Shown one piece after another: positions 17,687 to 40,802 of a stretch of 64,000 nucleotides of DNA. The notes under the pieces were generated by a model that saw only the letters and a program-made list of their open reading frames with translations, did not search any database and was not told the origin of the DNA. The DNA comes from Oscillospiraceae bacterium. Lineage in GTDB: Bacteria; Bacillota; Clostridia; Oscillospirales; QAMX01. Positions within the stretch are counted from its first letter, which is position 1. Every line of letters begins with the position of its first letter. A program made the position numbers and the translations under genes. Location: the NCBI GenBank assembly GCA_015067715.1, contig SVLY01000006.1, positions 3,679-67,678 on the forward strand, in the 5' to 3' direction.

Positions 17687-19535
17687 GGCAGATCTCCGTT
17701 GCCCTGCGGGCAATTCCCGGGGCGTCAAGCCCGGCCTCGGCCATGAGCCCCTCAACGCTGTCCGCAGAATAGTAGCGGTTTTGGGCGTTTTGGGCGTAGA
17801 CCTGTCTGTGGGGGAGCATGGAGGCGAGCCGCGCGGCCATACAGCCGGAGTCGGAAAGCTCCTCGCAGAAGAGAATGGGGCCGGAAGAGAGCCTGTCTAT
17901 ATCCTCTGCGGGCAGGGGAAGAATTTGGGTGAGCTTGATTACTGCGGCGGAGATACCCTGTTCATTAAGAAGCTCTGCGGCGGCAAGCACGTTGTCCGTA
18001 AGCCGCCCGGCGGTGACGAGGGTGAGCTCATCCCCTGTTTTAAGCACCGCGGCGGAGTCTTTTGAAGTGTCGCCATCAAATGCCGCTCCCGCACCCCGGG
18101 GGTAACGGATGGCGGCGGGGGAGGAGGGGTCGCTGTGGACGGTGTCCATAACGCTTTCAAGCTCGGCGGAGTTTGCCGGCATGTATATTTTCATGCCGGG
18201 CACCAGCGAGAGCATTCCAACGTCGTAGAGTCCCTGGTGGGTCTCACCGTCCCCGGCGACGAAGCCTGCCCGGTCTATGCAGAACACAACGGGGAGATTC
18301 ATAATGCCCACGTCGTGCATTATCTGGTCGAAGGAGCGCTGGATAAAGGTGGAGTATATGGCGCAGAAGGGACGTATGCCGCCGGCGGAAAGACCTGCCG
18401 ACATGGTTACGGCGTGTTCCTCGGCAATGCCCACGTCGAAGTATCTGTTGGGATATTTTTTTGCAAAGCCGTCAAGCCCGGCGCCCTTTTGCATGGCGGC
18501 GGTTATGGCAGCGATCTTTTTATCTTTTTTGGCAAGCTCACAGAGCTTGTTACCAAAGACTGAGCTCATTGACTCTCCCGAAGAGGGGGGACATACGCCG
18601 GTTTTGGGATCGAAGGAGGACACGGCGTGGAACTTTTCCGGGTCGGCCATGCTGGGGCCCCAGCCCTTGCCCTTTTGGGTCACGGCGTGGATAACGACGG
18701 GGCGGTCGTAGGTCTTTATCTCGTTGAATATCTGAATAAGGGCAGAGATATCGTGACCGTCCACGGGGCCAACGTATTTAAAGCCCAGGCACTCGAAAAA
18801 CGCGCTGGGGATAATGGAGTATTTAATGCTGTTCTTAATACGTGTAAAGGCGGAATCCAGCATTTCTCCGGCGGGAAGAGCCCGCATAACGGAGTGATAG
18901 GTGTTTTTTGCGTCCAGATATTCCTTGTTCAGGCGCATTTTGGACAGCACCGAGGAAAAGGAACCCACGGTGTTGCCTATGGCCATGCCGTTGTCGTTGA
19001 AGACCACAACAACGGGAAGACGGGACGCACCTGCGTCGTTGAGAGCCTCGGTGACCATGCCCCCGGCAAGGGCGCCGTCCCCCAAAAAGGCGATAAAGCG
19101 CCGGTGGGGGTCACCGCCGGAGAGCCTGTGGGCACGGGCGAGACCCACCGCGGCAGAGACGGAGGTCGATCCGTGACCCGCCACGAAGGCGTCGGTATTG
19201 CTCTCGGCAGGCTTTGGAAAGCCCTCGAGACCGCCTTTTTTACGCAGGGAGGAAAAGCCGGAAAACCTTCCGGTGAGGAGCTTGTGGGTGTAACACTGGT
19301 GGCCAACGTCGAAGATAAGCCTGTCCCGGGAGGTGTCGAAACAGTATTCAAGTGCAACGGAAAGCTCAACCGCCCCCAGGTTCGATGCAAGGTGGCCTCC
19401 GGTTTTGGAGAGGCTTTCGATAAGAAAGCTTCTGATCTCGGTGCAAAGGGCGCGGAGCTCAGAAACGCTGTAGGAATGGAGCTTTTTATTTATATCCGGC
19501 GAAGAAAGCCGGGGGTATTTACGGTCTTGTGACAT
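17673..19535 (-). CDS. dxs: 1-deoxy-D-xylulose-5-phosphate synthase
   Basis: GGHLASNLG, DVGHQ, GDGA and DVGIAEEH motifs. Confidence 0.95.
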   Translation of the reverse strand: MSQDRKYPRLSSPDINKKLHSYSVSELRALCTEIRSFLIESLSKTGGHLASNLGAVELSVALEYCFDTSRDRLIFDVGHQCYTHKLLTGRFSGFSSLRKKGGLEGFPKPAESNTDAFVAGHGSTSVSAAVGLARAHRLSGGDPHRRFIAFLGDGALAGGMVTEALNDAGASRLPVVVVFNDNGMAIGNTVGSFSSVLSKMRLNKEYLDAKNTYHSVMRALPAGEMLDSAFTRIKNSIKYSIIPSAFFECLGFKYVGPVDGHDISALIQIFNEIKTYDRPVVIHAVTQKGKGWGPSMADPEKFHAVSSFDPKTGVCPPSSGESMSSVFGNKLCELAKKDKKIAAITAAMQKGAGLDGFAKKYPNRYFDVGIAEEHAVTMSAGLSAGGIRPFCAIYSTFIQRSFDQIMHDVGIMNLPVVFCIDRAGFVAGDGETHQGLYDVGMLSLVPGMKIYMPANSAELESVMDTVHSDPSSPAAIRYPRGAGAAFDGDTSKDSAAVLKTGDELTLVTAGRLTDNVLAAAELLNEQGISAAVIKLTQILPLPAEDIDRLSSGPILFCEELSDSGCMAARLASMLPHRQVYAQNAQNRYYSADSVEGLMAEAGLDAPGIARRATEICRGNR

Positions 19536-19706
19536 GGAATTATCTCCGTTCAGGTGTGAAAGGGCAGGGGGCATTTCCCTACCCGGTTATTGTATCACAC
19601 CGGGAGTTCAAATGCAAGTGTGTTCTGTATATATATACGCTTTTTGTATAAATGTCCCGTCTCCGGAGGGATTTTTCGGCAATACGGAGAACTTGTTTTG
19701 AAGCTG

Positions 19707-19735
19707 TTGACAACGGCACCCGATAATATTATAAT
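19707..19735 (+). promoter_or_regulatory. Perfect consensus sigma-A promoter heading the redox cluster
   Basis: TTGACA 19707-19712, 17 nt, TATAAT 19730-19735. Confidence 0.85.
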
Positions 19736-19771
19736 AATGTAGAATGGCGTAAAATGGAGGTCGAGTGCCTT

Positions 19772-20617
19772 ATGATCTGCGACAAGATAAATCTCAACGA
19801 AGAGTTCCCCGGATTACCCATGAATAAACGGCCGGCTATACTGGAATGCTGCTGCCGTTCTCCGCTGTTTTCTCCCGCTGAAAAGTATCCCGCAATGATC
19901 GTTTGCCCCGGCGGCGGATACTGGGGCACCGCTCCCCACGAGGGCGAGCCCGTTGCTCTGGCAATGCTGGGAGAGGGTATTCAGAGCTTCGTTCTCTGGT
20001 ACACCGTTCCCGATTCCTCCTGGCCCCAGTACCATCTTGAGCTTGCCGCCGCAGTGCTCTGGATAAGACGTAACGCCGGGCGCCTGGGTGTGGACGAAAA
20101 CGCCATCTCCGTTCTGGGCTTTTCTGCCGGATGCCATCTGGCCGGAAGCTATTCCGTCAACTGGGGAGACCCCATTTTTTACGAAACTCTGGGCGCAGAG
20201 CGTGAAGAGCTGAGAGTGAACGGCATGGTGCTTTGCTACGGCGTGCTCTACTCCGACGGGCCCTACGTCCATAAGGGAAGCATGGACAATCTCTTTAAGG
20301 GAAACGCCACTCCCGAGCTTCTGAAGAAAATGTCCGTTCCGGACAATATCACCCCCGAGACTCCTCCCGCGTTCATCTGGCACACCGCCGAGGACAACGG
20401 AGTTCCCGTTGAAAACAGCCTGGGGGTCGCCGCGGCTATGAGCGCGGCAAAGCGCCCCTTCGAGCTCCACGTCTATCCCCACGGGGGTCACGGTCTGTCC
20501 CTTGGATCCTGGCTTGTACAGCATCCGGACAACCGCGCCAACGGCAACAAGACCGTTGCAAAATGGATCCGCGACTGCGCCGATTGGGTCAAGAGCACCT
20601 TTGGATACGATTTTTAA
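19772..20617 (+). CDS. Alpha/beta hydrolase (esterase)
   Basis: CPGGGY oxyanion motif, GFSAG nucleophile, D..VP and GGHG motifs. Confidence 0.85.
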   Translation: MICDKINLNEEFPGLPMNKRPAILECCCRSPLFSPAEKYPAMIVCPGGGYWGTAPHEGEPVALAMLGEGIQSFVLWYTVPDSSWPQYHLELAAAVLWIRRNAGRLGVDENAISVLGFSAGCHLAGSYSVNWGDPIFYETLGAEREELRVNGMVLCYGVLYSDGPYVHKGSMDNLFKGNATPELLKKMSVPDNITPETPPAFIWHTAEDNGVPVENSLGVAAAMSAAKRPFELHVYPHGGHGLSLGSWLVQHPDNRANGNKTVAKWIRDCADWVKSTFGYDF

Positions 20618-20634
20618 AGGCAGGACCGTTTTAT

Positions 20635-22065
20635 TTGGATAACCGATTTACATTAAGAAAATTTGATACCAAGGTCCAGCACCTTAAATACAAGGTACTG
20701 CGACAGGTGGCAAGACACGCCTGGGACGGGGATCTGCTGGAGCACGTTGCGGACATCCCCATGGAGATCGTTCCGGGAAAGATACCCACGATGCGCTGCT
20801 GTGTTTACAAGGAGCGGGCGATACTTGCCCAGAGGGTAAAGCTTGCAATGGGCGGCCACAGGGACGATGACCGGGTCATCCACGTTATCGATATCGCCTG
20901 TGACGAGTGTCCCGCCGCGGGCTACGACGTTACCGACTCCTGCAGGGGCTGTCTTGCTCACCGATGTGAGGACGTTTGCAAGAGGGGAGCCATCTCCTTC
21001 GACCACAACCACGTCGCCCATATCGACAAATCAAAGTGCGTGGAGTGCGGAGCCTGCGCAAAGGTATGTCCCTTTGCGGCCATCGTAAACCGCAAGCGCC
21101 CCTGTCAGAACGCCTGTAAGATAAAGGCCATATCTATAAACAGCGAGGGTTCCGCCACGGTGGACTATTCAAAGTGCATCTCCTGCGGCGCCTGCGTTTA
21201 CCAGTGCCCCTTTGGGGCAATAACCGAAAAGTCCTACATTCTGGACGCCATCGACCTTTTGAAAAACGGTGATAAGAAGACATACGCCGTTATCGCCCCG
21301 TCCTTTGCAAGCCAGTTCACCCACGCCAGATCCGGCCAGGTGATCGCCGGGCTGAAAAAGCTGGGGTTTGCGGGAGTAGTCGAGGCCGCCCTCGGGGCGG
21401 ACATGGTTGCCCTTGCAGAGGCAAGAGAGCTGGCGGAAAAGGGCTTTCTCACAAGCTCCTGCTGTCCGGCGTTTGTGGAATATATCGAAAAGACCCACCC
21501 GGCGCTGCTTTCCCGGGTATCTTCCAATCTTTCGCCCATGGCGCTTATCTCTAAGCACCTGAAGGAAAAAGAACCGGATTGCTCCGTGGTTTTCATCGGT
21601 CCGTGTACCGCCAAAAAGGGCGAGGTGAAAAAGCCGGAGGTCAGACCCTGGGTGGACGTTGCACTCACCTTTGAAGAGCTTCAGGCTCTGTTTGACAGCC
21701 GGGATATCGACATACGCACCCTTGAAGACGCCGTTCTGGACGATGCTTCGTACTACGGGCGGATATTTGCCCGCAGCGGCGGACTTTCCGATGCCGTTAG
21801 ACGAGCTCTGGAAGAGCAGGGTATTGAATTCGACTTTAAGCCCGTGGTCTGCGACGGTATTGAAGAGTGCCGCGTGGCGCTTATAAAGGCCGGCCATGAC
21901 CATCTTGACGGAAACTTCATCGAGGGCATGGCCTGTGTGGGCGGATGCATCGGCGGAGCGGGATGTCTTACCCACGGAGAAAAGAACCGGGCCGGTGTGG
22001 ACAAATACGGCCGCGAGGCCCACGAAAAAAACATGACGGACGCCGCAGGCGCCCTGAACACATAG
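20635..22065 (+). CDS. Monomeric [FeFe]-hydrogenase with ferredoxin domains (group B-like)
   Basis: H-cluster motifs TSSCCPAF, GPCTAKKGE and EGMACVGGCIGGAG, plus CxxCxxCxxxCP motifs. Start uncertain (TTG 20635). Confidence 0.85.
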   Translation: MDNRFTLRKFDTKVQHLKYKVLRQVARHAWDGDLLEHVADIPMEIVPGKIPTMRCCVYKERAILAQRVKLAMGGHRDDDRVIHVIDIACDECPAAGYDVTDSCRGCLAHRCEDVCKRGAISFDHNHVAHIDKSKCVECGACAKVCPFAAIVNRKRPCQNACKIKAISINSEGSATVDYSKCISCGACVYQCPFGAITEKSYILDAIDLLKNGDKKTYAVIAPSFASQFTHARSGQVIAGLKKLGFAGVVEAALGADMVALAEARELAEKGFLTSSCCPAFVEYIEKTHPALLSRVSSNLSPMALISKHLKEKEPDCSVVFIGPCTAKKGEVKKPEVRPWVDVALTFEELQALFDSRDIDIRTLEDAVLDDASYYGRIFARSGGLSDAVRRALEEQGIEFDFKPVVCDGIEECRVALIKAGHDHLDGNFIEGMACVGGCIGGAGCLTHGEKNRAGVDKYGREAHEKNMTDAAGALNT

Positions 22066-22095
22066 ATCACTGACAACAAAGGGAAGGAAATATAT

Positions 22096-23040
22096 ATGAA
22101 CAAAATCACAATCATAGGCACGGGAAGCGTCGGCTCCACCATTGCCTACACACTCACCGTAACCGGTCTTGCATCGGAGATCGTCATGATCGACATCAAC
22201 GGCGCAAAGGCCATGGGCGAGGCTCTGGACATCCGCCAGGGTACCCCCTTCTGCAACTCCTGCACCATCTATGCCGGCAGCTACGCCGACGCCGCAGGCT
22301 CTGACATCGTCATTCTCACCTCCGGTGTTGCACGTAAGCCCGGCCAGAGCAGACTTGACCTTGCCCAGACCAACGTCAACATCACCAAGACCATCATCCC
22401 CTGGATAACCAAGTACGCCCCCGACGCCACCTACGTTATCGTTTCCAACCCCGTGGACATTCTCACCTACACCTTCTGCAAATACTCCGGTCTTCCCGAA
22501 GAGCGCATCATCGGCTCCGGCACCATTCTGGACACCGCCCGTCTACGCTCCCGCCTTTCCGAGTACTATTCCATAAACCAGCAGAACGTCCACGCCTATG
22601 TTCTGGGCGAGCACGGCGATTCCTCCTTCATTCCCTGGTCCGTTGCCAATATCTCCAACGTTCCCATCGACGCCTACCGCGACTCTCTCATCCACACCGA
22701 CGCCGTTTACCCCGAGCTTATCACTGAAGAGGTTGAGGAATACGTCCGCAAGTCCGGCGCCCGTGTTATCGAGCGCAAGGGAGCCACCTTCTACGCAGTT
22801 TCCATCTCCGTATGCCACCTGTGCAAATGTCTGCTCAGCGGCATAGACACTACCCTCACCGTTTCAACCATGCTCCACGGCGAGTACGGCATTGAGGACA
22901 TCTGCCTCAGCCTTGTGAACGTGGTCGGCAAAAAGGGCGCCCACAGCAAGCTTCTGCTTCCCCTTACCGACAGCGAGCTTGCCGCTCTCCACAAGAGCGC
23001 AGAAAGCCTGAGAAACGTTATCAACAATATCTCCATCTGA
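22096..23040 (+). CDS. LDH/MDH-family dehydrogenase, probably malate dehydrogenase
   Basis: IIGTGSVG, SNPVD, LDTAR and GEHGDS motifs. Specificity loop GVARKPGQSR has Arg (MDH) rather than Gln (LDH). Adjacent to fumC. Confidence 0.75.
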   Translation: MNKITIIGTGSVGSTIAYTLTVTGLASEIVMIDINGAKAMGEALDIRQGTPFCNSCTIYAGSYADAAGSDIVILTSGVARKPGQSRLDLAQTNVNITKTIIPWITKYAPDATYVIVSNPVDILTYTFCKYSGLPEERIIGSGTILDTARLRSRLSEYYSINQQNVHAYVLGEHGDSSFIPWSVANISNVPIDAYRDSLIHTDAVYPELITEEVEEYVRKSGARVIERKGATFYAVSISVCHLCKCLLSGIDTTLTVSTMLHGEYGIEDICLSLVNVVGKKGAHSKLLLPLTDSELAALHKSAESLRNVINNISI

Positions 23041-23073
23041 GACGACCGAGTATAAGAAAGGAAGATATATCAA

Positions 23074-24450
<1,377 letters not shown>

Positions 24451-24472
24451 TTAACAGAGGAGAACCGAAAAG

Positions 24473-25261
24473 ATGAAACTTAGCTATTTCCCGGGATGCA
24501 CCCTGAAAAACAAAGCCGCAGACCTTGACCGCTACGCAAGGCTTTGCGCCGAGGCTCTGGGTGTTACTCTGGAAGAGATCGAAGAGTGGCAGTGCTGCGG
24601 AGGCGTGTTCACCACCTCCACGGACGAGGTCGCAACAAAGCTTGCCTCCGTCCGGGCTCTTGCAGACGCCAAAAAGCAGGGCAGACCTCTTGTCAGCGTT
24701 TGCTCTGCCTGCCACAACGTTATAAAGCAGACCAACCACGCCATGCAGACCAACGCCGAATTTGCGGACAAGGTCAACCGTTACATGGCTCCCGAGAGCT
24801 ACGACGGCTCTGCCGAGGTCGTCCACTATCTGGAGATGCTCCGGGATATCGTTGGCCTTGACAAGCTCGCCGCCGCAGTCAAAAACCCCCTTAAGGGCAA
24901 AAAGATCGCCGCCTACTACGGCTGTCTTCTGCTGAGACCGGGCTCCGTTATGGCAATGGACGATCCCGAAAACCCCAGGATCATGGAGGATATCATCACC
25001 GCCATCGGCGCCGAGCCTGTTATCTACCCCTACCGCAACGAGTGCTGCGGAGGCTACGTGGTTATGGAAAGCCCTGAGCTTGCGGGCAAAATGAGCAAAA
25101 AGGTCACCCAAAGTGCTCATGAGAAGGGCGCAGACCTCATCGTCACCGCTTGTCCCCTCTGCCGCTACAATCTTGTGAAGAACGGCTCTGACACTCCCGT
25201 TGTCTATTTCACAGAGCTTCTTGCCCAGGCTCTCGGTCTGAAGGAGGGCGAAGATGAGTAA
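24473..25261 (+). CDS. hdrB: Heterodisulfide reductase subunit B-like
   Basis: Two CCG domains: FPGC..WQCCGG..CSAC and YYGC..NECCGG..ACPLC. Confidence 0.9.
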   Translation: MKLSYFPGCTLKNKAADLDRYARLCAEALGVTLEEIEEWQCCGGVFTTSTDEVATKLASVRALADAKKQGRPLVSVCSACHNVIKQTNHAMQTNAEFADKVNRYMAPESYDGSAEVVHYLEMLRDIVGLDKLAAAVKNPLKGKKIAAYYGCLLLRPGSVMAMDDPENPRIMEDIITAIGAEPVIYPYRNECCGGYVVMESPELAGKMSKKVTQSAHEKGADLIVTACPLCRYNLVKNGSDTPVVYFTELLAQALGLKEGEDE

Positions 25262-25646
25262 TCCCATGGAAAACGTCCGCGAAGAGATAATCCGCCGAAG
25301 CGGAGTTGACCCCAAAAAGTGCATGCGCTGCGGCAAGTGCTCCGGCACCTGTCCGGCTTACGACGAGATGGAGTACCATCCCCACCAGTTTGTCTACATG
25401 GTGGAGTCCGGGGATATAGAACCCCTGATGAAGTCCGAATCCGTCTACCGCTGTCTTACCTGCTTTGCCTGTGTGGAGAGATGTCCCCGGGGCGTTGAGC
25501 CTGCAAAGCTTATCGAGGCAGTCCGCCTTGAGGTCATCCGTGCCTCCGGCGCAAACCATATGACCCCCGACCACGTGCCCGCCCTGCTGGACGACGAGAT
25601 CCCCCAGCAGGCTCTGGTAAGTGCGTTCAGAAAATATACCAAGTAA
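25254..25646 (+). CDS. hdrC: Heterodisulfide reductase subunit C-like
   Basis: CMRCGKCSGTCP and CLTCFACVERCP motifs. Confidence 0.9.
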   Translation: MSNPMENVREEIIRRSGVDPKKCMRCGKCSGTCPAYDEMEYHPHQFVYMVESGDIEPLMKSESVYRCLTCFACVERCPRGVEPAKLIEAVRLEVIRASGANHMTPDHVPALLDDEIPQQALVSAFRKYTK

Positions 25647-25661
25647 GGAGGAAAAGACTTT

Positions 25662-27656
25662 ATGCAGAGAATAGGTGTTTTTGTCTGCTGGTGCGGAAGC
25701 AATATTGCCGGAACAGTTGACGTTCAGGCTGTATCCGAGGCCCTTAAGACCGAGCCCGGCGTTGTCTTTTCCACCAACTATCAGTATATGTGCTCCCAGG
25801 CAGGTCAGGACATAATCAAAAATGCCATTGCCGAGCATAAGCTCACGGGCATCGTCGTCTGCTCCTGCTCACCCCGTATGCACGAGGCGACCTTCCGCAA
25901 GACCGCCGCGGCGGCAGGTCTCAACCCCTATATGGTGGAGATCGCCAACATCCGCGAGCAGTGCTCCTGGGTACATAAGGATATGCCCATCGGCACCGAA
26001 AAGGCCATCATCCTTGGCAGAGCGGCAATTGCAAAGGTAAACCTCAACACCCCCCTGACTCCCGGCGAAAGCCCCGTTACAAAGCGCGCTTTGGTCATCG
26101 GCGGCGGTATTGCCGGCATCCAGACCGCTCTGGATATTGCCGACGCGGGCTTTGAGGTGGACATCGTTGAGAAAAAGCCCACCATCGGCGGCAAAATGGC
26201 TCAGCTGGACAAGACCTTCCCCACGCTGGACTGTGCCGCGTGTATCCTCACTCCCAAAATGGTGGACGTTGCCCAGCACGAAAAGATCCGCATCTTCTCC
26301 TACAGCGAGGTTGAGGCTGTTTCGGGCTTCGTTGGCAATTTTGACGTTAAGATAAAGAAAAAGGCCCGCTTCGTGGACGAGACCAAGTGCACCGGCTGCG
26401 GCCTCTGCACCGAAAAGTGCCCCCAGAAAAAGGTTCCCAACGAGTTTAACCTGGGCATGGACAACCGCCGTGCGGTCTACATTCCCTTTGCCCAGGCAGT
26501 TCCCAAGGTTGCCACCATCGACGCGGACTACTGCAGTATGCTGAAAAACGGCAAGTGCGGCGTATGCGCCAAGGTGTGCACCGCCGGCGCCATAGACTAC
26601 AAACAGCAGGATCAGACCATTGAAGAAAAGTACGGCGCCATCGTCGTTGCCACGGGCTTTAACCCCATCAGCATGGACAAGTTCGATGAATATGCCTACA
26701 GCCAGTCCAAAGATGTTATAACCTCCCTTGAGTTCGAGCGTCTCACCAACGCCGCAGGTCCCACCGCGGGCAAGCTCCTGCGCCCCTCCGACGGAAAGCA
26801 TCCCCACACCATCGTGTTCGTCCAGTGCGTGGGCTCCAGATGCGACTCCTGCAGTGAAAAGGGCAAGGAATACTGCTCGAAGATCTGCTGTATGTACACC
26901 GCAAAGCACGCCATGCTCACCCGGGACAAGTATCCGGACACCGAAGTCTACGTGTTCTACATCGACGTTCGTACCCCCGGCAAGGCCTTCGACGAGTTCT
27001 ATCGCCGCGCCGTTGAGGAATACGGCGTTCACTATATCAAGGGCATGGTGGGCAAGGTCGCTCCCGAGGGCGACAAGCTCATGGTCCGTGCCAGCGATCT
27101 GCTTGCAAACAAGCAGCTGAACATCGAGGCTGACCTTGTGGTTCTTGCCGCCGCCATCGAGCCCGACAAGAGCGCCCGTCCCCTTGCAACCATGCTCACC
27201 GCCAGCATGGACACCAACGATTTCTTCACCGAGGCTCACCCCAAGCTCCGCCCCGTGGAAAGCCCCACCGCAGGTGTTTTCCTCTCCGGCGCGTGCCAGG
27301 GTCCCAAGGACATTCCCGAGACAGTCTCCCAGGCGGGAGCCGCCGCGGCAAAGGTCATCGGTCTGCTTGCCAAGGATAAGCTCACCGGCAACCCCTGCGT
27401 TGCATCTTCCGACGAGCTTATGTGCAACGGCTGTTCCTCCTGCGCCAACGTCTGCCCCTACGGCGCCATCACTTACGAAAACAAGGAATTCCGTATGCCG
27501 GACAGAACCGTTGCCATCCGCCGGGTCGCAAAGGTAAACCCCGCCGTTTGCCAGGGCTGTGGCGCGTGTACGGTGGCCTGTCCCTCCGGAGCCATGGACC
27601 TTAAGGGATTTGCAAGCTCACAGATCATTGCGGAGGTGGATGCAATATGCCGGTAA
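25662..27656 (+). CDS. hdrA: Heterodisulfide reductase subunit A (bifurcating FAD/FeS subunit)
   Basis: RIGVFVCWCG, CSPRMHE, NIREQCSWVH, GGGIAG, KTFPTLDC and CQGPKDIP motifs. Confidence 0.93.
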   Translation: MQRIGVFVCWCGSNIAGTVDVQAVSEALKTEPGVVFSTNYQYMCSQAGQDIIKNAIAEHKLTGIVVCSCSPRMHEATFRKTAAAAGLNPYMVEIANIREQCSWVHKDMPIGTEKAIILGRAAIAKVNLNTPLTPGESPVTKRALVIGGGIAGIQTALDIADAGFEVDIVEKKPTIGGKMAQLDKTFPTLDCAACILTPKMVDVAQHEKIRIFSYSEVEAVSGFVGNFDVKIKKKARFVDETKCTGCGLCTEKCPQKKVPNEFNLGMDNRRAVYIPFAQAVPKVATIDADYCSMLKNGKCGVCAKVCTAGAIDYKQQDQTIEEKYGAIVVATGFNPISMDKFDEYAYSQSKDVITSLEFERLTNAAGPTAGKLLRPSDGKHPHTIVFVQCVGSRCDSCSEKGKEYCSKICCMYTAKHAMLTRDKYPDTEVYVFYIDVRTPGKAFDEFYRRAVEEYGVHYIKGMVGKVAPEGDKLMVRASDLLANKQLNIEADLVVLAAAIEPDKSARPLATMLTASMDTNDFFTEAHPKLRPVESPTAGVFLSGACQGPKDIPETVSQAGAAAAKVIGLLAKDKLTGNPCVASSDELMCNGCSSCANVCPYGAITYENKEFRMPDRTVAIRRVAKVNPAVCQGCGACTVACPSGAMDLKGFASSQIIAEVDAICR

Positions 27657-28081
27657 ACGAATACAAGCCCCTTATCGTTGCCTTCTGCTGTAACTGGTGC
27701 TCCTACGCCGGTGCGGACCTTGCGGGCAACAACAGACTTAACTATCCCGCGGACGTAAAGATCATCCGCGTTCCCTGTTCCTGCCGGGTCAACCCCATGT
27801 TCATCCTTCGCGCCTTCCAGCGCGGAGCGGACGGTGTTATCATTTGCGGCTGTCACCCCGGAGACTGCCACTATACCTCCGGCAACTATTACACCCGCCG
27901 CAGAATGGCTCTGCTGTTCTCCATGCTGGACTATCTGGGCATCGAACGTGAGCGCACCAGAGTGGAGTGGGTCTCTGCCGCGGAAGGCGCAAAGTTTGCC
28001 GCCACAATGAACGATTTCGCCAAAACGGTTGCCGCCCTTGGTGAAAACAAAAGACTGGAGGATCTCAGATGCAAAAAATAA
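27647..28081 (+). CDS. flxD: MvhD-like [2Fe-2S] protein (FlxD)
   Basis: FCCNWCSYAGAD, RVPCS and GCHPGDCHY motifs. Confidence 0.88.
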   Translation: MPVNEYKPLIVAFCCNWCSYAGADLAGNNRLNYPADVKIIRVPCSCRVNPMFILRAFQRGADGVIICGCHPGDCHYTSGNYYTRRRMALLFSMLDYLGIERERTRVEWVSAAEGAKFAATMNDFAKTVAALGENKRLEDLRCKK

Positions 28082-29058
28082 CACGGGATGCCCTTGTCAA
28101 TAAGGCTCTGGCCCTTCTGGATAACGGAACTGTGGACCGTGTTCTGGGCTGGAAAAAGGGCGAGCTCGCCTACGACGTTACCCCCGCCGTCTTTACAGAC
28201 GGCAAGAGCATCGGGGAGGGCTTTGTCTGGAACGATTTTTGCGGAGCAAACTTCTCCAAATACCTCATTGCCGAGACCAAAAAGACCGGAAGCAAGGTGC
28301 TTGTTTTCCTCAAGCCCTGCGACACCTACAGCTTCAACCAGCTCCTCACCGAGCACCGTTTCGACCGTGAAAAGGTCTATGCCGTGGGCATTCCCTGCGA
28401 GGGGATGACCGACGTTCACAAGCTCCGCGCCGCTGTGGGCGAGGGCATCTGCAACGTCGAAGCCGATGGCGATATGCTTGCCGTTTCCACCGTCTACACC
28501 GACGAGCCCGTAAACGTGCCTGCCGCCGAGGTCATGCTGGAGAGATGCCTTGTGTGCAAGAGCAAAAAGCACGTGGCTTACGACGAGCTTCTGGGAGAGG
28601 AGGGCGAGGTCGCCGAATCTGCCCGTTTCGATCAGGTGGCCGAGCTCGAGGCTCTCACCCCCGACGAAAGATTTGCCTTCTGGCAGAACGAGCTTTCCCG
28701 CTGTATCCGCTGCAACGCCTGCCGTGACGTTTGCCCGGCCTGCACCTGTGAAAAGTGCGTTTTCAACAACCCCTCTTCCGGAGTTGAAAACAAGGCGGCG
28801 GCCAACAGCTTTGAAGAAAAGATGTTCCACATCATCCGCGCGTTCCACGTTGCGGGCAGATGCACCGACTGCGGCGAGTGCAGCCGCGTATGCCCCCAGA
28901 GAATTCCCCTGCACCTGCTGAACAGAAAATTCATCAGCGATATCGACAATTTCTACGGCGAATATCAGGCCGGAGCAGAGGTCGGTTCCCGTGCGCCCCT
29001 TGTGAACTACGATCAGGACGACCTGGAGCCCTCCGAAGTTTTCGGCGGAAGGGAGTGA
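28069..29058 (+). CDS. flxC: 4Fe-4S protein, FlxC-like
   Basis: CIRCNACRDVCPACTC and GRCTDCGECSRVCP motifs; position within the hdr-flx cluster. Confidence 0.75.
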   Translation: MQKITRDALVNKALALLDNGTVDRVLGWKKGELAYDVTPAVFTDGKSIGEGFVWNDFCGANFSKYLIAETKKTGSKVLVFLKPCDTYSFNQLLTEHRFDREKVYAVGIPCEGMTDVHKLRAAVGEGICNVEADGDMLAVSTVYTDEPVNVPAAEVMLERCLVCKSKKHVAYDELLGEEGEVAESARFDQVAELEALTPDERFAFWQNELSRCIRCNACRDVCPACTCEKCVFNNPSSGVENKAAANSFEEKMFHIIRAFHVAGRCTDCGECSRVCPQRIPLHLLNRKFISDIDNFYGEYQAGAEVGSRAPLVNYDQDDLEPSEVFGGRE

Positions 29059-29065
29059 GGCAGAT

Positions 29066-30091
29066 ATGCGTAAATGTTCCCTTTCTGAAATGAACAAGGT
29101 CTTTGCCCGGATCGCCTCGGCACAAAAGCTCTATCTCCCCGTGGACGGAGAGGCCGGAGCGGAATATAAGCTCTGGGAAGAGGGCACGGAGTGGAGCAAC
29201 GCTCTCAACACCGTGAAAAGCCCCAAGGACTTTTTCTTCCCCCAGCTTGAAAACCTTATGGAGTTCAAGGTCACAGGCAAAAGCATTGAGGTCATCGACA
29301 CCCGCAAGGCAAGCGAGGATTTCGTTGTTTTCGGCGTTCGCGCCTGCGACGTGAAGAGCTTCGAGGTGCTGGATCGGGTCTTCCTCGTTGACCCGGTGGA
29401 CAGCTATTACGCTACCCGCAGGGAGCACGGCACCATCGTCTCTCTGGCCTGCACCCGTCCCACCGAGACCTGCTTCTGCCGGACCTTTGGCATAGACGCA
29501 ACGGAGCCCCAGGGCGACGTTGTCACATGGAAGACCGAAACCCAGCTCTTTTTCGAGGCAAAGACCCAAAAGGGTCAGGCCTTTATGAGCCTTATCGAAG
29601 ATCTCACCGAAGAGTGCGACGGTTCTGAGGTTGAGGCTCAGAAGGAAAAGACCGGGAAGATCCTGGCCCGTCTGCCCCTGGCAAACCTCTCTGCCGATGC
29701 CTTTGGCGCCGACAAGACCGACAAATTCTTTAACGCACCCGAATGGAAGACCCTTTCCGAGGCCTGTCTTGGATGCGGCACCTGCACCTTCGTGTGTCCC
29801 ACCTGCCAGTGCTACGACATTAAGGACTTCAGCACAGGCTCCGGCGTCGTGCGCTTCCGTTGCTGGGACTCCTGTATGTACTCCGACTTCACCAAAATGG
29901 CCCACGGAAACCCCAGACTTACCCAGCTTGAGCGTTTCCGCCAGCGCTTTATGCACAAGCTTGTTTACTATCCCACCAATAACGACGGTATGTTCAGCTG
30001 TGTGGGCTGCGGACGCTGTCTGTCCAGCTGCCCCATCTCCATGAACATCGTCAAAGTAATGAAGACCTTAGGAGATAAAGCAGATGACTGA
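29066..30091 (+). CDS. flxB: 4Fe-4S dicluster protein, AsrA-like (FlxB)
   Basis: CLGCGTCTFVCPTCQC, RCWDSC, RFRQRFMHK and CVGCGRC motifs. Confidence 0.8.
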   Translation: MRKCSLSEMNKVFARIASAQKLYLPVDGEAGAEYKLWEEGTEWSNALNTVKSPKDFFFPQLENLMEFKVTGKSIEVIDTRKASEDFVVFGVRACDVKSFEVLDRVFLVDPVDSYYATRREHGTIVSLACTRPTETCFCRTFGIDATEPQGDVVTWKTETQLFFEAKTQKGQAFMSLIEDLTEECDGSEVEAQKEKTGKILARLPLANLSADAFGADKTDKFFNAPEWKTLSEACLGCGTCTFVCPTCQCYDIKDFSTGSGVVRFRCWDSCMYSDFTKMAHGNPRLTQLERFRQRFMHKLVYYPTNNDGMFSCVGCGRCLSSCPISMNIVKVMKTLGDKADD

Positions 30092-30917
30092 CCGCAATGA
30101 AATGCTTATTCCGGTGGTCGGCGTTATCACCGACGTCCGTATGGACACCCCCGACGTAAAGACCTTCCGCGTTGTCACTCCCGACGGTGTCAAGCCCTTT
30201 GCCCACATGCCGGGACAGTGTGCAATGCTCTCCATTCCCGGAGTTGGCGAGGCGATGTTCTCCATAACCTCTTCTCCCACCAACACCGAGTTCATGGAAT
30301 TTTCCATTAAAAAGTGCGGATGTGTTACCGAATGGCTCCATCAGGCCGAACCCGGCCAGCAGATTACCGTCCGCGGCCCCTACGGAAAGCCCTTCCCCGT
30401 TGAGGAGGACCTCAAGGGCAAGGATCTGCTCTTCATCGCAGGCGGTATCGGCCTTGCGCCCCTTCGCTCCGTTATCAACTACGTTCGCCACTACCGCGAA
30501 AACTACGGCAAGGTTCAGATAGTTTACGGCGCCCGCTCCAAGGACGATCTTGTGGACTACAGCGAGATCATCAACGAGTGGATGACCGACGACGGCATTG
30601 AAGTGAACCTCACCATCGACCGCGAGCAGGAAGGCTGGGACGGACACGTTGGCTTTATTCCCAACTTCGTCAAAGAGCTTTCTCCCGACCTTAACAAGAC
30701 CGTTCTCATGTGCGGCCCTCCCATTATGATCAAGTTCACCCTTCAGGGACTTATGGAACTGGGCTTTAAGAAGACTCAGGTGTACACCACCATGGAGCTT
30801 CGCATGAAGTGCGGCATTGGCAAGTGCGGCAGATGCAATATCGGCTCAAAGTACGTCTGCAAGGACGGTCCCGTTTTCCGCTTCGACGAGCTGGACGAGC
30901 TTCCGGACGAGTATTGA
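30084..30917 (+). CDS. flxA: FAD/NAD(P)-binding oxidoreductase, AsrB/PyrK-like (FlxA)
   Basis: RGPYG, AGGIGLAP, CGPPIM and MKCGIGKCGRC motifs. Confidence 0.85.
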   Translation: MTDRNEMLIPVVGVITDVRMDTPDVKTFRVVTPDGVKPFAHMPGQCAMLSIPGVGEAMFSITSSPTNTEFMEFSIKKCGCVTEWLHQAEPGQQITVRGPYGKPFPVEEDLKGKDLLFIAGGIGLAPLRSVINYVRHYRENYGKVQIVYGARSKDDLVDYSEIINEWMTDDGIEVNLTIDREQEGWDGHVGFIPNFVKELSPDLNKTVLMCGPPIMIKFTLQGLMELGFKKTQVYTTMELRMKCGIGKCGRCNIGSKYVCKDGPVFRFDELDELPDEY

Positions 30918-30940
30918 TTTTTGTCACAAGGAGAATTCAC

Positions 30941-31615
30941 ATGGAAAATATGGTTAACATTTTTCTGTTCGGAAAGAAATATTCCGTTCCGGACAATCTG
31001 ACTATAATGTGCGCAATGGAATACGCGGGCTATCAGCTGGTTCGCGGATGCGGATGCCGCAACGGCTTCTGCGGCGCCTGCGCCACCATTTACCGCATTA
31101 AGGGCGACCGCGAGCTTCACGCCTGTCTGGCCTGCCAGACCAAGGTGGAGAACGATATGTACATTGCCACCCTTCCCTTCTTCCCCCTTATCAAGCAGGT
31201 CTACGACATGAACACCGTCAGCCCCACCCAGGCCGTTATGATGCAGCTCTACCCCGAGATCTACGCCTGCATCGGTTGCAACGCCTGCACCAAGGCCTGC
31301 ACCCAGGAGCTCAAGGTCATGCAGTACATCGCCTACGCCCAGCGCGGAGACTTTGAAAAGTGCGCCGAGGAGAGCTTTGACTGCGTTATGTGCGGCGTCT
31401 GCTCTTCCCGTTGCCCCGCCGGAATTTCCCATCCCCAGGTGGCAATGCTTGCCCGCAGAATAAACGGCAAGTATCTTGCTCCCGACTGCGGCCATCTTGA
31501 AGACCGGGTCCGCGAGATCAAGGACGGCACCTTCACCGAGCTTATCGAGGCGCTTATGCAGAAGCCCGTTGAAGAGATGAAAGAGCTCTACAACACCCGC
31601 GAGATCGAGAAATAA
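30941..31615 (+). CDS. Fumarate reductase/succinate dehydrogenase-like iron-sulfur subunit
   Basis: GCRNGFCGAC...C [2Fe-2S] motif plus two CxxCxxCxxxC motifs. ATG 30941 follows AGGAG. Confidence 0.75.
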   Translation: MENMVNIFLFGKKYSVPDNLTIMCAMEYAGYQLVRGCGCRNGFCGACATIYRIKGDRELHACLACQTKVENDMYIATLPFFPLIKQVYDMNTVSPTQAVMMQLYPEIYACIGCNACTKACTQELKVMQYIAYAQRGDFEKCAEESFDCVMCGVCSSRCPAGISHPQVAMLARRINGKYLAPDCGHLEDRVREIKDGTFTELIEALMQKPVEEMKELYNTREIEK

Positions 31616-31633
31616 AAGGAGGAGAAGGCTAAT

Positions 31634-33238
31634 ATGTATTCCGAAAAATTTCAGCAGTCCCTCAAGCTTGTTGAAGAGGCCAGAGAGCGCAATATCGCCT
31701 ACGAGCCCGACCGCATGACTGCAAAGCAGAAGGAAGACCTTCTTGCCGCCTACCATCCCGACTACAAGCAGGATCAGTTCGAGATCCTTAAAATAGGTCC
31801 CAACAAGGGCGAAAAAGTCCCCTGTGAGCTGGCCGAGATGCTCCAGGCTCACAGCCGCATTTCGAATATCAGCGTTGACCTTGAAAACCCCGACTACGAC
31901 GTTGACGTTCTCGTCATCGGCGGCGGCGGCGCAGGCTCTTCTGCCGCCATCGAAGCCCACGAGGCCGGCGCAAACGTTATGATCGTCACCAAGCTCCGTA
32001 TTGGCGACGCCAACACCATGATGGCCGAGGGCGGCATTCAGGCCGCCGACAAGCCCAACGACAGCCCTGCCATCCACTTTGTGGACGCTTTCGGCGGAGG
32101 TCACTTTGCCGCAAAGCGCGAGCTTCTCTCAAAGCTGGTCTGCGACGCTCCCGAAGCGATCCTCTGGCTTTCCGAGCTGGGTGTTGAGTTCGACAAGATG
32201 CCCGACGGCACCATGGTCACCACCCACGGCGGCGGCACCTCCAGAAAGCGCATGCACGCCGCAAAGGACTATTCCGGCGCCGAGATCATGCGCACCCTTC
32301 GCGACGAGGTTCTGAACCGTCAGATCCCCGTGGTGGACTTCACCGCCGCTATCGAGCTCATTCTCGACGACAAGGGCAATGCCGCAGGCGCAGTTCTTAT
32401 GAACATGGAGACCCGTGACCTGCTGGTCGCCAGAGCAAAGACCGTTATCATCGCCACCGGCGGTGCGGGACGTATGCATTACCAGGGCTTCCCCACCTCC
32501 AACCACTACGGCGCAACTGCGGACGGCCTTGTGCTGGGCTACAGAGCCGGCGCAAAGCTTCTCTACGCCGACACTCTTCAGTACCATCCCACCGGCGCAG
32601 CCTACCCCGAGCAGATCTTCGGCGCTCTTGTCACCGAAAAGGTCCGCTCCCTTGGTGCAAAGCTTGTGAACGTGAACGGCGAGGTCTTCATGCATCCCCT
32701 TGAGACCCGTGACGTTTCCGCCGCATCCATCATCCGCGAGTGCAGCACCCGCGGCAACGGCGTGGACACCGGCGACGGTCAGGGCGTCTGGCTGGACACT
32801 CCCATGATCGAGCGCATCGGCGGCGAAGGCACTATTATGAAGCGCATTCCCGCCATGTGGAGAATGTTTGAGAAATACGGCATAGACATCCGCTACGAGC
32901 CCATTCTCGTCTATCCCACTCTCCATTATCAGAACGGCGGTCTGGACATCACTCCCGACTGCATGACCACCGGCGTTGAGAACCTCTTCGTGGCCGGCGA
33001 GGCCGTTGGAGGCATCCACGGCAGAAACCGCCTTATGGGCAACTCCCTGCTGGACATCATCGTCTTTGGCCGTCAGGCCGGCAAGAGCGCCGCCGCCGTT
33101 GCGGCAAACACCTGTGTCGGCAAGCTCAGCCTTGACCACGTTGCCGCCTTCGAGGCCGAGATCGCCTCTTCCGGCATCGAGACCGAAGCTGTCTCTCCCA
33201 AGCTTTTGCCCAACTACACCGGCAAGGCAAGCATCTGA
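31634..33238 (+). CDS. Soluble fumarate reductase-like flavoprotein (FrdA/TfrA-like)
   Basis: GGGGAG, MAEGG, QYHPT, TRD, LHYQNGG and HGRNRLMGNSL dicarboxylate-site motifs. Confidence 0.82.
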   Translation: MYSEKFQQSLKLVEEARERNIAYEPDRMTAKQKEDLLAAYHPDYKQDQFEILKIGPNKGEKVPCELAEMLQAHSRISNISVDLENPDYDVDVLVIGGGGAGSSAAIEAHEAGANVMIVTKLRIGDANTMMAEGGIQAADKPNDSPAIHFVDAFGGGHFAAKRELLSKLVCDAPEAILWLSELGVEFDKMPDGTMVTTHGGGTSRKRMHAAKDYSGAEIMRTLRDEVLNRQIPVVDFTAAIELILDDKGNAAGAVLMNMETRDLLVARAKTVIIATGGAGRMHYQGFPTSNHYGATADGLVLGYRAGAKLLYADTLQYHPTGAAYPEQIFGALVTEKVRSLGAKLVNVNGEVFMHPLETRDVSAASIIRECSTRGNGVDTGDGQGVWLDTPMIERIGGEGTIMKRIPAMWRMFEKYGIDIRYEPILVYPTLHYQNGGLDITPDCMTTGVENLFVAGEAVGGIHGRNRLMGNSLLDIIVFGRQAGKSAAAVAANTCVGKLSLDHVAAFEAEIASSGIETEAVSPKLLPNYTGKASI

Positions 33239-33251
33239 GTATATAACCGTT

Positions 33252-33281
33252 AACCGGCACAGCAAATTTGCTGTGCCGGTT
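33252..33281 (+). terminator. 30-bp perfect palindrome closing the redox cluster
   Basis: aaccggcacagcaaa|tttgctgtgccggtt. Confidence 0.65.
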
Positions 33282-33326
33282 CTTCAAATCCGGTAATACG
33301 AAGGCTTATTAAAAGGAGGATTAACA

Positions 33327-34910
33327 ATGCAAAACCGGGCTTTCAAACTGTGTGTGATCTGCGGTGTTCTTTTTTCTCTGCTGGTTTTAGCCGGTTGCAA
33401 GGGCTCTCTCAGGGCGGTAAAGCCGGTCTCGGAGCAGTATGAATACACTCAAAGGGAAAAGACCTGCTTTTTCCCCTCTTTCACCAACGAAAACGAAAAG
33501 ACGGAAATTCTGAGCGTTTCCACGGATGAGGGCTATTTCGTCTGTATGACAACGGACGAAGCCCGGGCAGATTTATTCGTCAATTCTCAGCGCACCTTGC
33601 TGCGTTTTCTTCGGGCGAACGGGGTGGAGCTGCGGGAGCTGAACTACTTTTGCGTAAATTACGACGATAACTTCAGCGAAAGCGGAAAAGATAACGCCTA
33701 TATTGCCCTTTCTTCCGCAGAGACCTGGCGGCAGGTGCTTGTGACCCTGCAGGCGCTCTGGGGAGACTTTACCGATTACGGCTACGTCTATGCAATGGCA
33801 AACGCCGTTGCAGCTCAGCTTGGGTGGGAAACGGATGCTGTGATTTTGCCAGAGCAGGGGGCAATGGATGAATTCTTCTGCCAAAACCCAAAAGCGCTGA
33901 ACCTTTTGTACCCCGCTTTTACGGAGCTCTATGCAACGGAGGAGACCGTTTGGTATTCAAAATCGCTGAGTCTTTCGCTTTTTGAAGAAGTTGACCTGGC
34001 TGACGCGCTGAAAAAGCCGGTGGAAACACAGCTGGATGAGTTTGAAAAACTTCTTTTGGGCTATTCCGGGGAGATAGGAGCCCAATTTTCGCCCCAGACC
34101 TTTGGCTATGGGTACCGGGGGACTTATCTGCCCCTTTGCATTCAGACGACCTACGCCACGCATATTGTAGACCGGGGCTACGAGGATTATTTTGCTGAAA
34201 CCTATGGGGATATTTTCAGCGATTACGTAACCGTATACCAAACTGCGGAGAACCTCGACCGTGAGACCGTTGAAGCGGTCAGGCGTTTTGGTCTGGAGGA
34301 CAGGGCGGGAAACGTCAACGTAAACTGGCTTTCCGAATACAGTGCGGAGACGAAATATGCAAAGCGCTGGGTCAACCTGTATTATTTCGGAATGGGGGAG
34401 ATCTACGTCACGTCGGTCTTTTCCCATAGCCATGAATATTACCACCACGTTGCCCGCCTGATCAACCCGGATTCGGCTGTGACCGGGTCGTGGCAAAACC
34501 AGGCCTTTTGCGAGATCGGCCGCTCCTATTCCCCTTATGCTCAGCTCGCCGCGGAATACCAGTGCACCCAGGATCCGAAATCGGCGGAGCTTTTCAATTC
34601 CTTCGCCGGACACGATTTCCGGCCGGGGAGGGACGATTATTATGAAGCAATGGATATCTCCTGTTATGCTCTGGACGAGCTTCGCCTCAGTCTTGACCAA
34701 AGCGGCAGCGGCCCGTCCATCAATTCAATCACCCACTACCTGATCGGAATATACGGAGAGGACGCAGTAATTGACCTGATGCTGTATCCGGATACGGTCT
34801 TTGAGGTCACCGGCAAAACCTGGGAGACTTTAGAGGCCGAATGGAAACAGCAGCTTGGGGAAAAATACGCCGGAAAAGAAATTCCGGACTGGCTCTGGGA
34901 GTTGCGATAA
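33327..34910 (+). CDS. Hypothetical lipoprotein with HExxH motif
   Basis: AGGAGG RBS, lipobox LAGC, SHEYYH motif. Confidence 0.65.
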   Translation: MQNRAFKLCVICGVLFSLLVLAGCKGSLRAVKPVSEQYEYTQREKTCFFPSFTNENEKTEILSVSTDEGYFVCMTTDEARADLFVNSQRTLLRFLRANGVELRELNYFCVNYDDNFSESGKDNAYIALSSAETWRQVLVTLQALWGDFTDYGYVYAMANAVAAQLGWETDAVILPEQGAMDEFFCQNPKALNLLYPAFTELYATEETVWYSKSLSLSLFEEVDLADALKKPVETQLDEFEKLLLGYSGEIGAQFSPQTFGYGYRGTYLPLCIQTTYATHIVDRGYEDYFAETYGDIFSDYVTVYQTAENLDRETVEAVRRFGLEDRAGNVNVNWLSEYSAETKYAKRWVNLYYFGMGEIYVTSVFSHSHEYYHHVARLINPDSAVTGSWQNQAFCEIGRSYSPYAQLAAEYQCTQDPKSAELFNSFAGHDFRPGRDDYYEAMDISCYALDELRLSLDQSGSGPSINSITHYLIGIYGEDAVIDLMLYPDTVFEVTGKTWETLEAEWKQQLGEKYAGKEIPDWLWELR

Positions 34911-34929
34911 ATAAAGCCCGGGTTTCAAA

Positions 34930-34964
34930 AACCCTCCCTGCGGCAATTTGCCCCAGGGAGGGTT
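34930..34964. terminator. Hairpin between convergent genes
   Basis: aaccctccctg...cagggagggtt. Confidence 0.65.
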
Positions 34965-34983
34965 ATGTTTCAGGCTATTGTTT

Positions 34984-40789: not shown

Positions 40790-40802
40790 AGGGTGATTCC
40801 CC

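Follow-up and report, generated by a model that had tools for sequence, protein, structure and literature searches.

How might a gut bacterium turn oxaloacetate into succinate with a fumarate reductase that lacks a membrane anchor, and which carriers would bring electrons to such an enzyme and take them away? The question is raised by a gene cluster of an Oscillospiraceae bacterium (assembly GCA_015067715.1, contig SVLY01000006.1) that lies in a stretch of 64,000 nt, forward-strand positions 3,679–67,678 of the contig. We refer to this whole stretch as the window and number it from its first letter. Thirteen co-directional genes occupy its + strand from 19772 to 33238 in the order esterase, hyd, mdh, fumC, hdrB, hdrC, hdrA, flxD, flxC, flxB, flxA, frdB and frdA, and, by the successive spacings (+17, +30, +33, +22, -8, +15, -10, -13, +7, -8, +23 and +18 nt), neighbors overlap by at most 13 nt or lie no more than 33 nt apart. 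A first-pass annotation made from the sequence alone had described thirteen genes on one strand with gaps of at most 33 nt, and our open reading frame (ORF) listing, together with Pfam and NCBIfam searches, bears this out, with the addition that the first gene is an esterase, which the title of that annotation omitted. The explanation that we favor, with slightly better than even confidence, is that the cluster encodes a cytoplasmic, quinone-free branch from oxaloacetate to succinate, in which electrons from NADH would be split at HdrA between fumarate and ferredoxin.

The Flx-Hdr module, its predicted fumarate reductase and the enzymes that lead to it

The twelve genes that follow the esterase are these:

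20635–22065, + strand: hyd, a group B monomeric [FeFe] hydrogenase with a TTG start (TIGR04105, 567.6 bits against a cut-off of 450)
22096–23040, + strand: mdh, an NAD dehydrogenase of the lactate dehydrogenase (LDH) family (Pfam Ldh_1_N and Ldh_1_C)
23074–24450, + strand: fumC, class II fumarate hydratase FumC (TIGR00979, 710.2 bits against 664.75)
24473–25261, + strand: hdrB, HdrB-like subunit (Pfam CCG twice, both motifs complete)
25254–25646, + strand: hdrC, HdrC-like 2x[4Fe-4S] subunit (Fer4 families; TIGR03290 below its cut-off)
25662–27656, + strand: hdrA, HdrA flavoprotein (NCBIfam HdrA2, 795 bits over residues 3–662 of 664, cut-off 1100)
27647–28081, + strand: flxD, FlxD of the MvhD type (Pfam FlpD, 3.4e-55)
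28069–29058, + strand: flxC, FlxC iron-sulfur subunit (Fer4 families)
29066–30091, + strand: flxB, FlxB iron-sulfur subunit (Pfam Fer4_22)
30084–30917, + strand: flxA, FlxA, NAD(P)H- and FAD-binding with a [2Fe-2S] domain (Pfam NAD_binding_1, FAD_binding_6 and DHODB_Fe-S_bind)
30941–31615, + strand: frdB, FrdB-like iron-sulfur subunit of 224 aa (weak Fer2, Fer4, dhsB and TfrB matches only)
31634–33238, + strand: frdA, FrdA-like flavoprotein of 534 aa (Pfam FAD_binding_2, 1.8e-65)

All seven FlxABCD-HdrABC subunits carry the domains expected of them in Pfam and NCBIfam, and the domain searches confirm the composition given in the first-pass annotation, a complete FlxABCD-HdrABC set plus an anchor-less FrdBA. 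HdrB aligns end to end with the methanogen HdrB 8rvv_B (E = 8.5e-38), and all ten cysteines of its CCG motifs are invariant across 49 sequences, as are the two CxxCxxCxxxCP motifs of HdrC. No protein of the locus is more conserved than HdrA, the candidate site of bifurcation, which is 80–92% identical over 80 loci. The named NCBIfam models of the Hdr subunits, which are built on methanogen enzymes, match with scores under their cut-offs (HdrA2, 795 against 1100 bits; HdrB, 150 against 345; HdrC, 64 against 160). Among solved structures, FlxC is closest by sequence to FdhB from Fdh-Hdr complexes (8rvu_E, 1e-21), and FlxB to the beta subunit of a sulfhydrogenase (9nez_B, 2.6e-39). FlxABCD-HdrABC of Desulfovibrio vulgaris is built from these seven kinds of subunit too, with identical domain content; for that system Ramos and co-workers (2015) are said to have proposed DsrC as the acceptor in sulfate reducers and to have tied the cluster to ethanol oxidation. 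The window differs from that system in that it holds no Dsr gene and in that FrdBA is the constant neighbor of the module. Pfam finds no gene for an Sdh/Frd membrane anchor, Dsr or Mcr among the 44 other window ORFs of at least 90 aa, which are housekeeping genes only; the earlier statement that the window has no membrane anchor, Dsr or methanogenesis gene therefore stands, with Mcr taken to represent methanogenesis.

The FrdA subunit can be modeled with confidence throughout (predicted local distance difference test (pLDDT) 94.6, predicted template modeling score (pTM) 0.93), and the top fold match of the model is Escherichia coli FrdA (1kf6_A, E = 1.4e-36, TMq 0.72, 32% identity). The two proteins share the same set of catalytic His and Arg residues, positions that are invariant in 46 sequences. 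Compared with the E. coli quinol:fumarate reductase FrdABCD, however, the window enzyme has no anchor subunits, no Pfam match to the Succ_DH_flav_C domain, a conserved N-terminal extension of 88 aa, a FrdB with two 4-Cys cluster motifs, and an Asn in the position of the covalent-FAD His44. This His-to-Asn replacement suggests that the FAD of FrdA is bound non-covalently. FrdB lacks a CCG domain, and its cluster motifs are one of the [2Fe-2S] type and two of the [4Fe-4S] type with four Cys each; its motif cysteines are invariant in 49 sequences, and a start at the ATG at 30941 gives the modal length of FrdB orthologs, 224 aa.

The enzyme also resembles methanogen TfrAB, which is likewise soluble and anchor-less. 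In NCBIfam, FrdA is matched best by TfrA, and FrdB and HdrB of the window together hold the cluster types of the single-chain TfrB. The differences lie in the score of FrdA, 332.5 bits against a cut-off of 718, and in the CCG module, which in the window is a separate HdrB within a full HdrABC set; in addition, Clostridia are not expected to have a metabolism of coenzyme M (CoM) or coenzyme B (CoB). A library of representative proteins also contains a naturally fused protein (P0125, 727 aa) in which an FrdB-like Fe-S domain is joined to an FrdA-like flavoprotein. Because the join in P0125 falls inside the region of the FrdA N-terminal extension, the extension may be a contact for FrdB. Stop codons (TAA/TGA) in some FrdA matches could be taken to signal recoding; we rejected this by position alone, the stops lying at the C-terminal end of the alignment.

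Upstream of the core, FumC is assigned without difficulty, and the dehydrogenase encoded by mdh calls for some care. Its product passes two NCBIfam cut-offs for L-LDH (347 against 339 bits and 329 against 304) and misses those for malate dehydrogenase (MDH; NF004863, 277.2 against 283; TIGR01763, 225 against 352). The position that sets substrate specificity in this family is Arg in malate-type and Gln in lactate dehydrogenases, and it is Arg in 49 of 49 sequences, those of the window and of 48 orthologs. We read the protein, the only member of the LDH/MDH family in its genome, as a malate dehydrogenase, for which the specificity residue is the only argument. The label "MDH" of the first-pass annotation thus keeps the support of the residue and lacks that of the family models. 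With this qualification, the annotated sequence of steps from oxaloacetate through malate and fumarate to succinate is supported by the protein families and by conserved synteny.

The product of hyd carries the H-cluster cysteine motifs and is the only match above the TIGR04105 cut-off in its genome, which also encodes the maturase HydG (893 bits). The hydrogenase had been proposed to release H2 from reduced ferredoxin, and its type agrees with this, as gut enzymes of group B reoxidize ferredoxin derived from pyruvate:ferredoxin oxidoreductase (PFOR) according to the passages on fumarate, ferredoxin and PFOR in PMC12578642. Like those enzymes, the one in the window is monomeric, scores above the TIGR04105 cut-off and is expected to be a ferredoxin-dependent H2 producer. 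The difference is that these passages tie the enzyme to PFOR and say nothing of its gene lying beside a fumarate-reductase cluster, and neither "synten" nor "genomic context" appears anywhere in that paper. At another place in the genome (G000:C65:3178-10434), further [FeFe]-hydrogenase-like genes of 587 aa and 461 aa stand beside a 601-aa ORF. These may encode a multimeric NADH-linked hydrogenase, and the genome may thus have other routes to H2.

The assembly to which the window belongs measures 2.69 Mb and is 92% complete. It encodes RnfC (406 bits), a GTP-dependent phosphoenolpyruvate carboxykinase (PEPCK; 533 bits) and, at the end of a contig, a fragment of PFOR, and at this completeness it gives no match for ATP-PEPCK, MenA or methylmalonyl-CoA mutase. 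This content fits succinate as an end product that is made without quinones. The stretch occurs in DNA sequencing runs of animal gut metagenomes.

Conservation of the cluster, linkage of the hydrogenase and loss of a regulatory segment

A scan for HdrA with one genome per species returned at least 659 relatives, and we examined the best 80 loci, nearly all of which are metagenome-assembled genomes of gut or rumen Clostridia, joined by Petroclostridium sp. X23 (L041). Linkage was counted by tblastn with the window proteins, among loci with enough DNA. On this count frdA lies downstream of hdr-flx in every case (53/53 loci), fumC is adjacent in 56/61 and mdh in 41/52, and a permease of the Asp-Al_Ex family directly follows frdA in 36/48. 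Pfam confirmed the permease in 23 of the 27 loci scanned, which were picked from the 48 and scanned with most minus-strand and very short ORFs left out. Over a wider range, 76 of 301 genomes sampled evenly across the order (42 of 152 genera) have an FrdA ortholog, as do 99 of the 399 genomes scored in the class (55 of 217 genera). Genomes of the class often carry the nine-gene core hdrBCA-flxDCBA-frdBA: in a class-level set of 20 loci from 20 genomes (L114-L133) it is contiguous in 20/20 as far as the DNA reaches, with two loci ending inside it. In the same set, fumC is adjacent in 10/18 loci and mdh in 12/18, the permease follows frdA in 10/20, and rex stands beside frdA in 3/20. Across many families of the class (L001-L080 and L114-L133), HdrA is 80–92% and FrdA 62–89% identical, an unusual degree of conservation that could reflect either very strong purifying selection or horizontal spread.

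Linkage of the hydrogenase to this core is uncommon yet recurrent. In 7/52 loci a group B hyd stands upstream on the same strand, and in four further ones it stands 3–5 kb downstream on the opposite strand; linkage is also seen in G292, a genome of the same genus, and in one locus of about 15 at class level. In a tree of HdrA and FrdA with 51 rows, the same-strand cases all fall within one clade of 21, mixed with unlinked sisters, and the opposite-strand cases make up four of the nine rows of a separate clade. The first-pass annotation had suggested surveying how often the hydrogenase and mdh are linked to such clusters, and had called the module unusually complete. Our survey upholds that description for the hydrogenase, with hyd upstream on the same strand in only seven of 52 loci; it does not do so for mdh, which is usual (41/52), nor for the permease that is the usual last gene and is missing here.

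The gene order in G292 (locus L110) bears on how the hydrogenase came to lie next to the esterase. There the order is esterase, rex, a sensory-type [FeFe] hydrogenase (hydS; domains Fe_hyd_lg_C and PF04060), a SpoIIE/PP2C phosphatase, group B hyd, mdh and the rest of the cluster. Alignment by blastn (window 20502-20656 against L110:14417-18864) shows that the rex-hydS-PP2C segment of about 4.3 kb is absent from the window, and in L110 the esterase is about 4.3 kb further from hyd than it is in the window. The joint between esterase and hyd is not an artifact of one assembly, because DNA metagenome contigs from other studies bridge it. Two features at the upstream end of the unit come into play here:

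19707–19735, + strand: sigma-70-type promoter TTGACA-N17-TATAAT, matching at 12 of 12 positions
19772–20617, + strand: alpha/beta-hydrolase esterase (Pfam BD-FAE, 2.9e-15), outside the pathway

The promoter is the sole perfect site among seven promoter-like sites in 19400–33500, a region for which shuffles predict 5.9 such sites, and a GGAGG stands 11 nt ahead of the esterase ATG at 19772. Judged by its position, the promoter is that of the esterase gene. Since L110 holds the rex-hydS-PP2C segment between esterase and hyd, the 13-gene unit is a lineage-specific fusion and the perfect promoter the esterase's own; loss of the segment would have put the succinate cluster under that consensus promoter. 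The earlier picture of one cluster behind one promoter is correct as a layout, then, with the qualification that its first gene is an unrelated esterase to which the promoter belongs.

Genes of the kind lost from the window recur in its relatives. Sensory-type (group C-like) [FeFe] hydrogenase genes are found within 10 kb of the cluster in 9/80 loci, often with a PP2C phosphatase, and three of these nine loci have no group B hyd; rex is found within the same distance in 11/80. Examples in which the sensory-type gene lies downstream of the cluster are L006:3273-4958, L072:2036-4892, L003, L029 and L066. Such gene content hints at control of the succinate branch in response to H2 and NADH.

Proposed electron flow and competing explanations

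In the explanation that we favor, oxaloacetate would come from the GTP-dependent PEPCK encoded elsewhere in the genome, be converted to malate by the LDH-like malate dehydrogenase and be passed on to fumarate by FumC. The anchor-less FrdBA, with its non-covalent FAD and no quinol site, would then reduce fumarate to succinate. FrdBA and the Flx-Hdr subunits would form a physical complex with NADH as the likely donor, along which the high-potential path would run from NADH to FlxA, through FlxBCD to the HdrA flavin, and then by way of HdrC, HdrB and FrdB to the FAD of FrdA and to fumarate. The second electron of each pair would go from HdrA to ferredoxin, giving a net reaction of 2 NADH + fumarate + oxidized ferredoxin -> 2 NAD+ + succinate + reduced ferredoxin, whose free energy we take to be about -49 kJ/mol, as estimated from standard potentials. 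Reduced ferredoxin would give up its electrons either to Rnf, with conservation of energy, or to the group B [FeFe] hydrogenase encoded in the cluster, with release of H2, and a single transcript would be expected to carry all 13 genes.

The cluster is an example of a widespread and already described type, whose mechanism has been a proposal in print since 2019. The sections of Koendjbiharie et al. 2020 (PMC7282089) that treat the "succinate operon" of Pseudoclostridium thermosuccinogenes describe a fumarate hydratase, Flx-Hdr, a fumarate reductase and a putative transporter, and put forward the hypothesis of NADH-dependent fumarate reduction coupled to ferredoxin reduction, for which they cite a 2019 Preprints.org paper. 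They also report that the operon is up about 4-fold at low CO2 and that added H2 abolished succinate formation. The published clostridial precedent that the first-pass annotation had mentioned is therefore real. By described architecture alone, the window matches that operon in its fumarate hydratase, its seven-gene Flx-Hdr and its two-gene fumarate reductase, and the two genomes share the GTP-PEPCK route, Rnf and hydrogenases. The window differs in that it adds mdh, the group B hydrogenase and an unrelated esterase upstream, and in that the trailing putative succinate transporter of P. thermosuccinogenes, which most relatives of the window also have, is not found at the window locus.

A more distant parallel is described in the portions of PMC6315080 on tubeworm symbionts and Chromatiaceae, where flxABCD-hdrABC is interspersed with korABCD and tfrAB and a Flx-Hdr-Kor-Tfr complex is proposed in the tubeworm symbionts. 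As in the window, Flx-Hdr there lies beside a TfrA-like fumarate reductase, and the authors propose direct electron transfer. Those clusters, by contrast, belong to the reverse tricarboxylic acid cycle of autotrophic Gammaproteobacteria and include a 2-oxoglutarate:ferredoxin oxidoreductase, whereas the branch encoded in the window would be part of a fermentation and includes mdh, fumC and a hydrogenase gene. For Ruminococcus champanellensis, a STRING link between HdrA and Sdh/Frd is listed, and left without interpretation in the relevant part of the text (bioRxiv 2024, 10.1101/2024.09.26.615249). PMC5861303 and PMC9044749 gave nothing further on a Flx-Hdr-linked fumarate reductase, although the latter provides a CRISPRi tool for P. 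thermosuccinogenes.

A number of observations count against the scheme that we favor. For none of FrdA, HdrA, HdrB and HdrC does the score reach the curated NCBIfam cut-off of the nearest named family. The similarity of FrdB to SdhB/FrdB is marginal, and its structural model (pLDDT 57.6, pTM 0.41) is too poor for a fold comparison. The intact CCG sites of HdrB would suit a thiol or disulfide substrate equally well, and our literature search found no biochemical evidence for bifurcation or for NADH:fumarate activity of a Flx-Hdr-Frd complex. The Asp-Al_Ex permease is missing from the window locus, the copy in the genome lying on another contig. As for the hydrogenase, 45/52 close relatives do not have it at the locus, its position next to the esterase is an outcome of the loss of the regulatory segment, and, as the genome encodes no other group B hydrogenase, it must also serve PFOR-derived ferredoxin.

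Much of this bears on the hydrogenase, and there is a considerable chance, rather below even, that the core works as proposed and the hydrogenase is a bystander, a general ferredoxin-dependent H2 enzyme placed at the locus by inherited order, with ferredoxin going mainly to Rnf. Its absence from those 45 loci and from about 14 of the 15 class-level loci speaks for this, as do its standing as the genome's only group B hydrogenase and the presence of RnfC; the confinement of the same-strand linked loci to one clade of 21 rows means, moreover, that the linkage may be a single event. A functional tie is favored instead by the second arrangement, downstream and on the opposite strand in four of nine rows of a separate clade, by the nine loci with sensory-type hydrogenase genes near the cluster, three of them without group B hyd, and by the loss of succinate formation under H2 that is described in the operon sections of PMC7282089. 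It is improbable that the cluster encodes a plain soluble NADH:fumarate reductase in which Hdr-Flx is an electron relay and no ferredoxin is reduced. Electron transfer from NADH to fumarate is strongly exergonic by itself, to judge by the redox potentials, and our literature search turned up no demonstrated bifurcation for any Flx-Hdr-Frd complex; on the other hand, nine genes are a costly outlay for a reaction that single-subunit soluble enzymes carry out elsewhere, HdrA exceeds the other proteins of the locus in conservation (80–92% identity), and it aligns near full length to models of bifurcating HdrA, including the ferredoxin-type domains.

Two further readings concern the path and the direction of the electrons. 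Flx-Hdr might reduce a disulfide at HdrB, with FrdBA working as a separate thiol:fumarate reductase like methanogen TfrAB, a scheme that we consider very unlikely. It would account for the best NCBIfam match of FrdA being TfrA and for the retention of both CCG sites of HdrB, since in methanogen HdrB such sites bind the heterodisulfide. The match to TfrA, however, is far under its cut-off (332 against 718 bits), FrdB has no CCG domain, so that FrdBA would lack the thiol-oxidizing module of TfrB, and HdrB is the sole CCG protein of the locus. Least of all do we expect the system to run in reverse, from succinate to fumarate, by a confurcation to NAD+ driven by reduced ferredoxin as in syntrophic propionate or succinate oxidation. 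In principle, flavin-based bifurcation can be reversed; yet non-covalent FAD is typical of enzymes that reduce fumarate rather than oxidize succinate, GTP-PEPCK is present and methylmalonyl-CoA mutase gives no match in the 92%-complete genome, an exporter-type permease follows frdA in relatives, and the DNA runs with the stretch are animal gut metagenomes.

A wider view, which we offer as a speculation and regard as doubtful, is that Frd-Hdr-Flx, found in about one in four of the Clostridia species sampled, works as a single unit together with the group B hydrogenase and supplies the quinone-free "fumarate respiration" still missing from the picture of gut Clostridia. The reduction of fumarate would then drive electrons from NADH uphill to ferredoxin, from which they would pass to H2 or through Rnf. 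In relatives, an H2-sensing hydrogenase with PP2C, together with Rex, would set the succinate:H2 ratio by ambient H2, and the lineage of the window would have lost this control through the 4.3-kb deletion, so that the consensus promoter now drives the unit. If the bifurcating mechanism itself is right, many gut and rumen Clostridia would make succinate without quinones, gaining energy through reduced ferredoxin and Rnf or venting NADH as H2, and this would bear on models of the flow of succinate, of propionate precursors and of hydrogen in guts and rumens. The Frd-linked set is the one Flx-Hdr context with an obvious high-potential acceptor, and thus a good system for testing bifurcation by Flx-Hdr. 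The idea is already in print; what the window adds is the linkage of the hydrogenase, the regulatory neighbors seen in relatives, and a deletion that would have rewired the promoter. The window itself stands out by its attached hydrogenase of group B, by the lack of the exporter at the locus and by that same deletion, which appears to place the unit under a consensus promoter.

Operator-like repeat, closing hairpin, RNA libraries and flanking genes

Four further features lie at or beyond the borders of the unit:

19696–19713, + strand: Rex-operator-like inverted repeat that overlaps the -35 hexamer, with two mismatches to the consensus
33252–33281, + strand: closing hairpin with 15-nt arms (-28.3 kcal/mol, z = -6.6)
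33327–34910, + strand: predicted lipoprotein of 527 aa, with a signal peptide ending LAGC
39752–40843, - strand: gene for an ApbE-family flavin transferase

The repeat is the one match to the Rex-operator consensus in the 64 kb, against an expectation of 0.14; a match turned up in 12 of 100 shuffles, and the genome encodes one Rex; we treat the repeat as a lead and not as a finding. Comparable sites are present upstream of the first cluster gene in three relatives (L027, L033 and L041). At the other end of the unit, the hairpin is likely an intrinsic terminator: none of 200 shuffles folds as well. It has only a weak T-tract behind it, and a terminator scan did not list it. The perfect promoter and the closing palindrome of the first-pass annotation are thus both found, as the 12/12 site at 19707–19735 and the hairpin just described. 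A scan of 19000–35000 with Rfam found no RNA family.

Two metatranscriptome runs, both from one study, hold the stretch, and their contigs bridge the esterase-hyd, hyd-mdh and mdh-fumC joints. Contigs from the same RNA libraries also cover the intergenic DNA ahead of the promoter and the stretch behind the hairpin, at a flat depth of about 3–11. Because these intergenic flanks show the same flat depth, carry-over of DNA into the libraries is possible.

The esterase falls below the cut-off of its NCBIfam model, lp_1002 arylesterase (147 against 300 bits), and none of the 80 related loci has a homolog of it. The lipoprotein likewise has no homolog in the 80 loci, and it matches no Pfam or NCBIfam family. 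Because none of these loci carries either gene, we place both outside the module. In the window, frdA is followed by the hairpin and then by the lipoprotein gene, which sits where relatives carry the Asp-Al_Ex permease. The gene for the flavin transferase, 6.5 kb downstream of the cluster, may have a role in flavinylation of Rnf.

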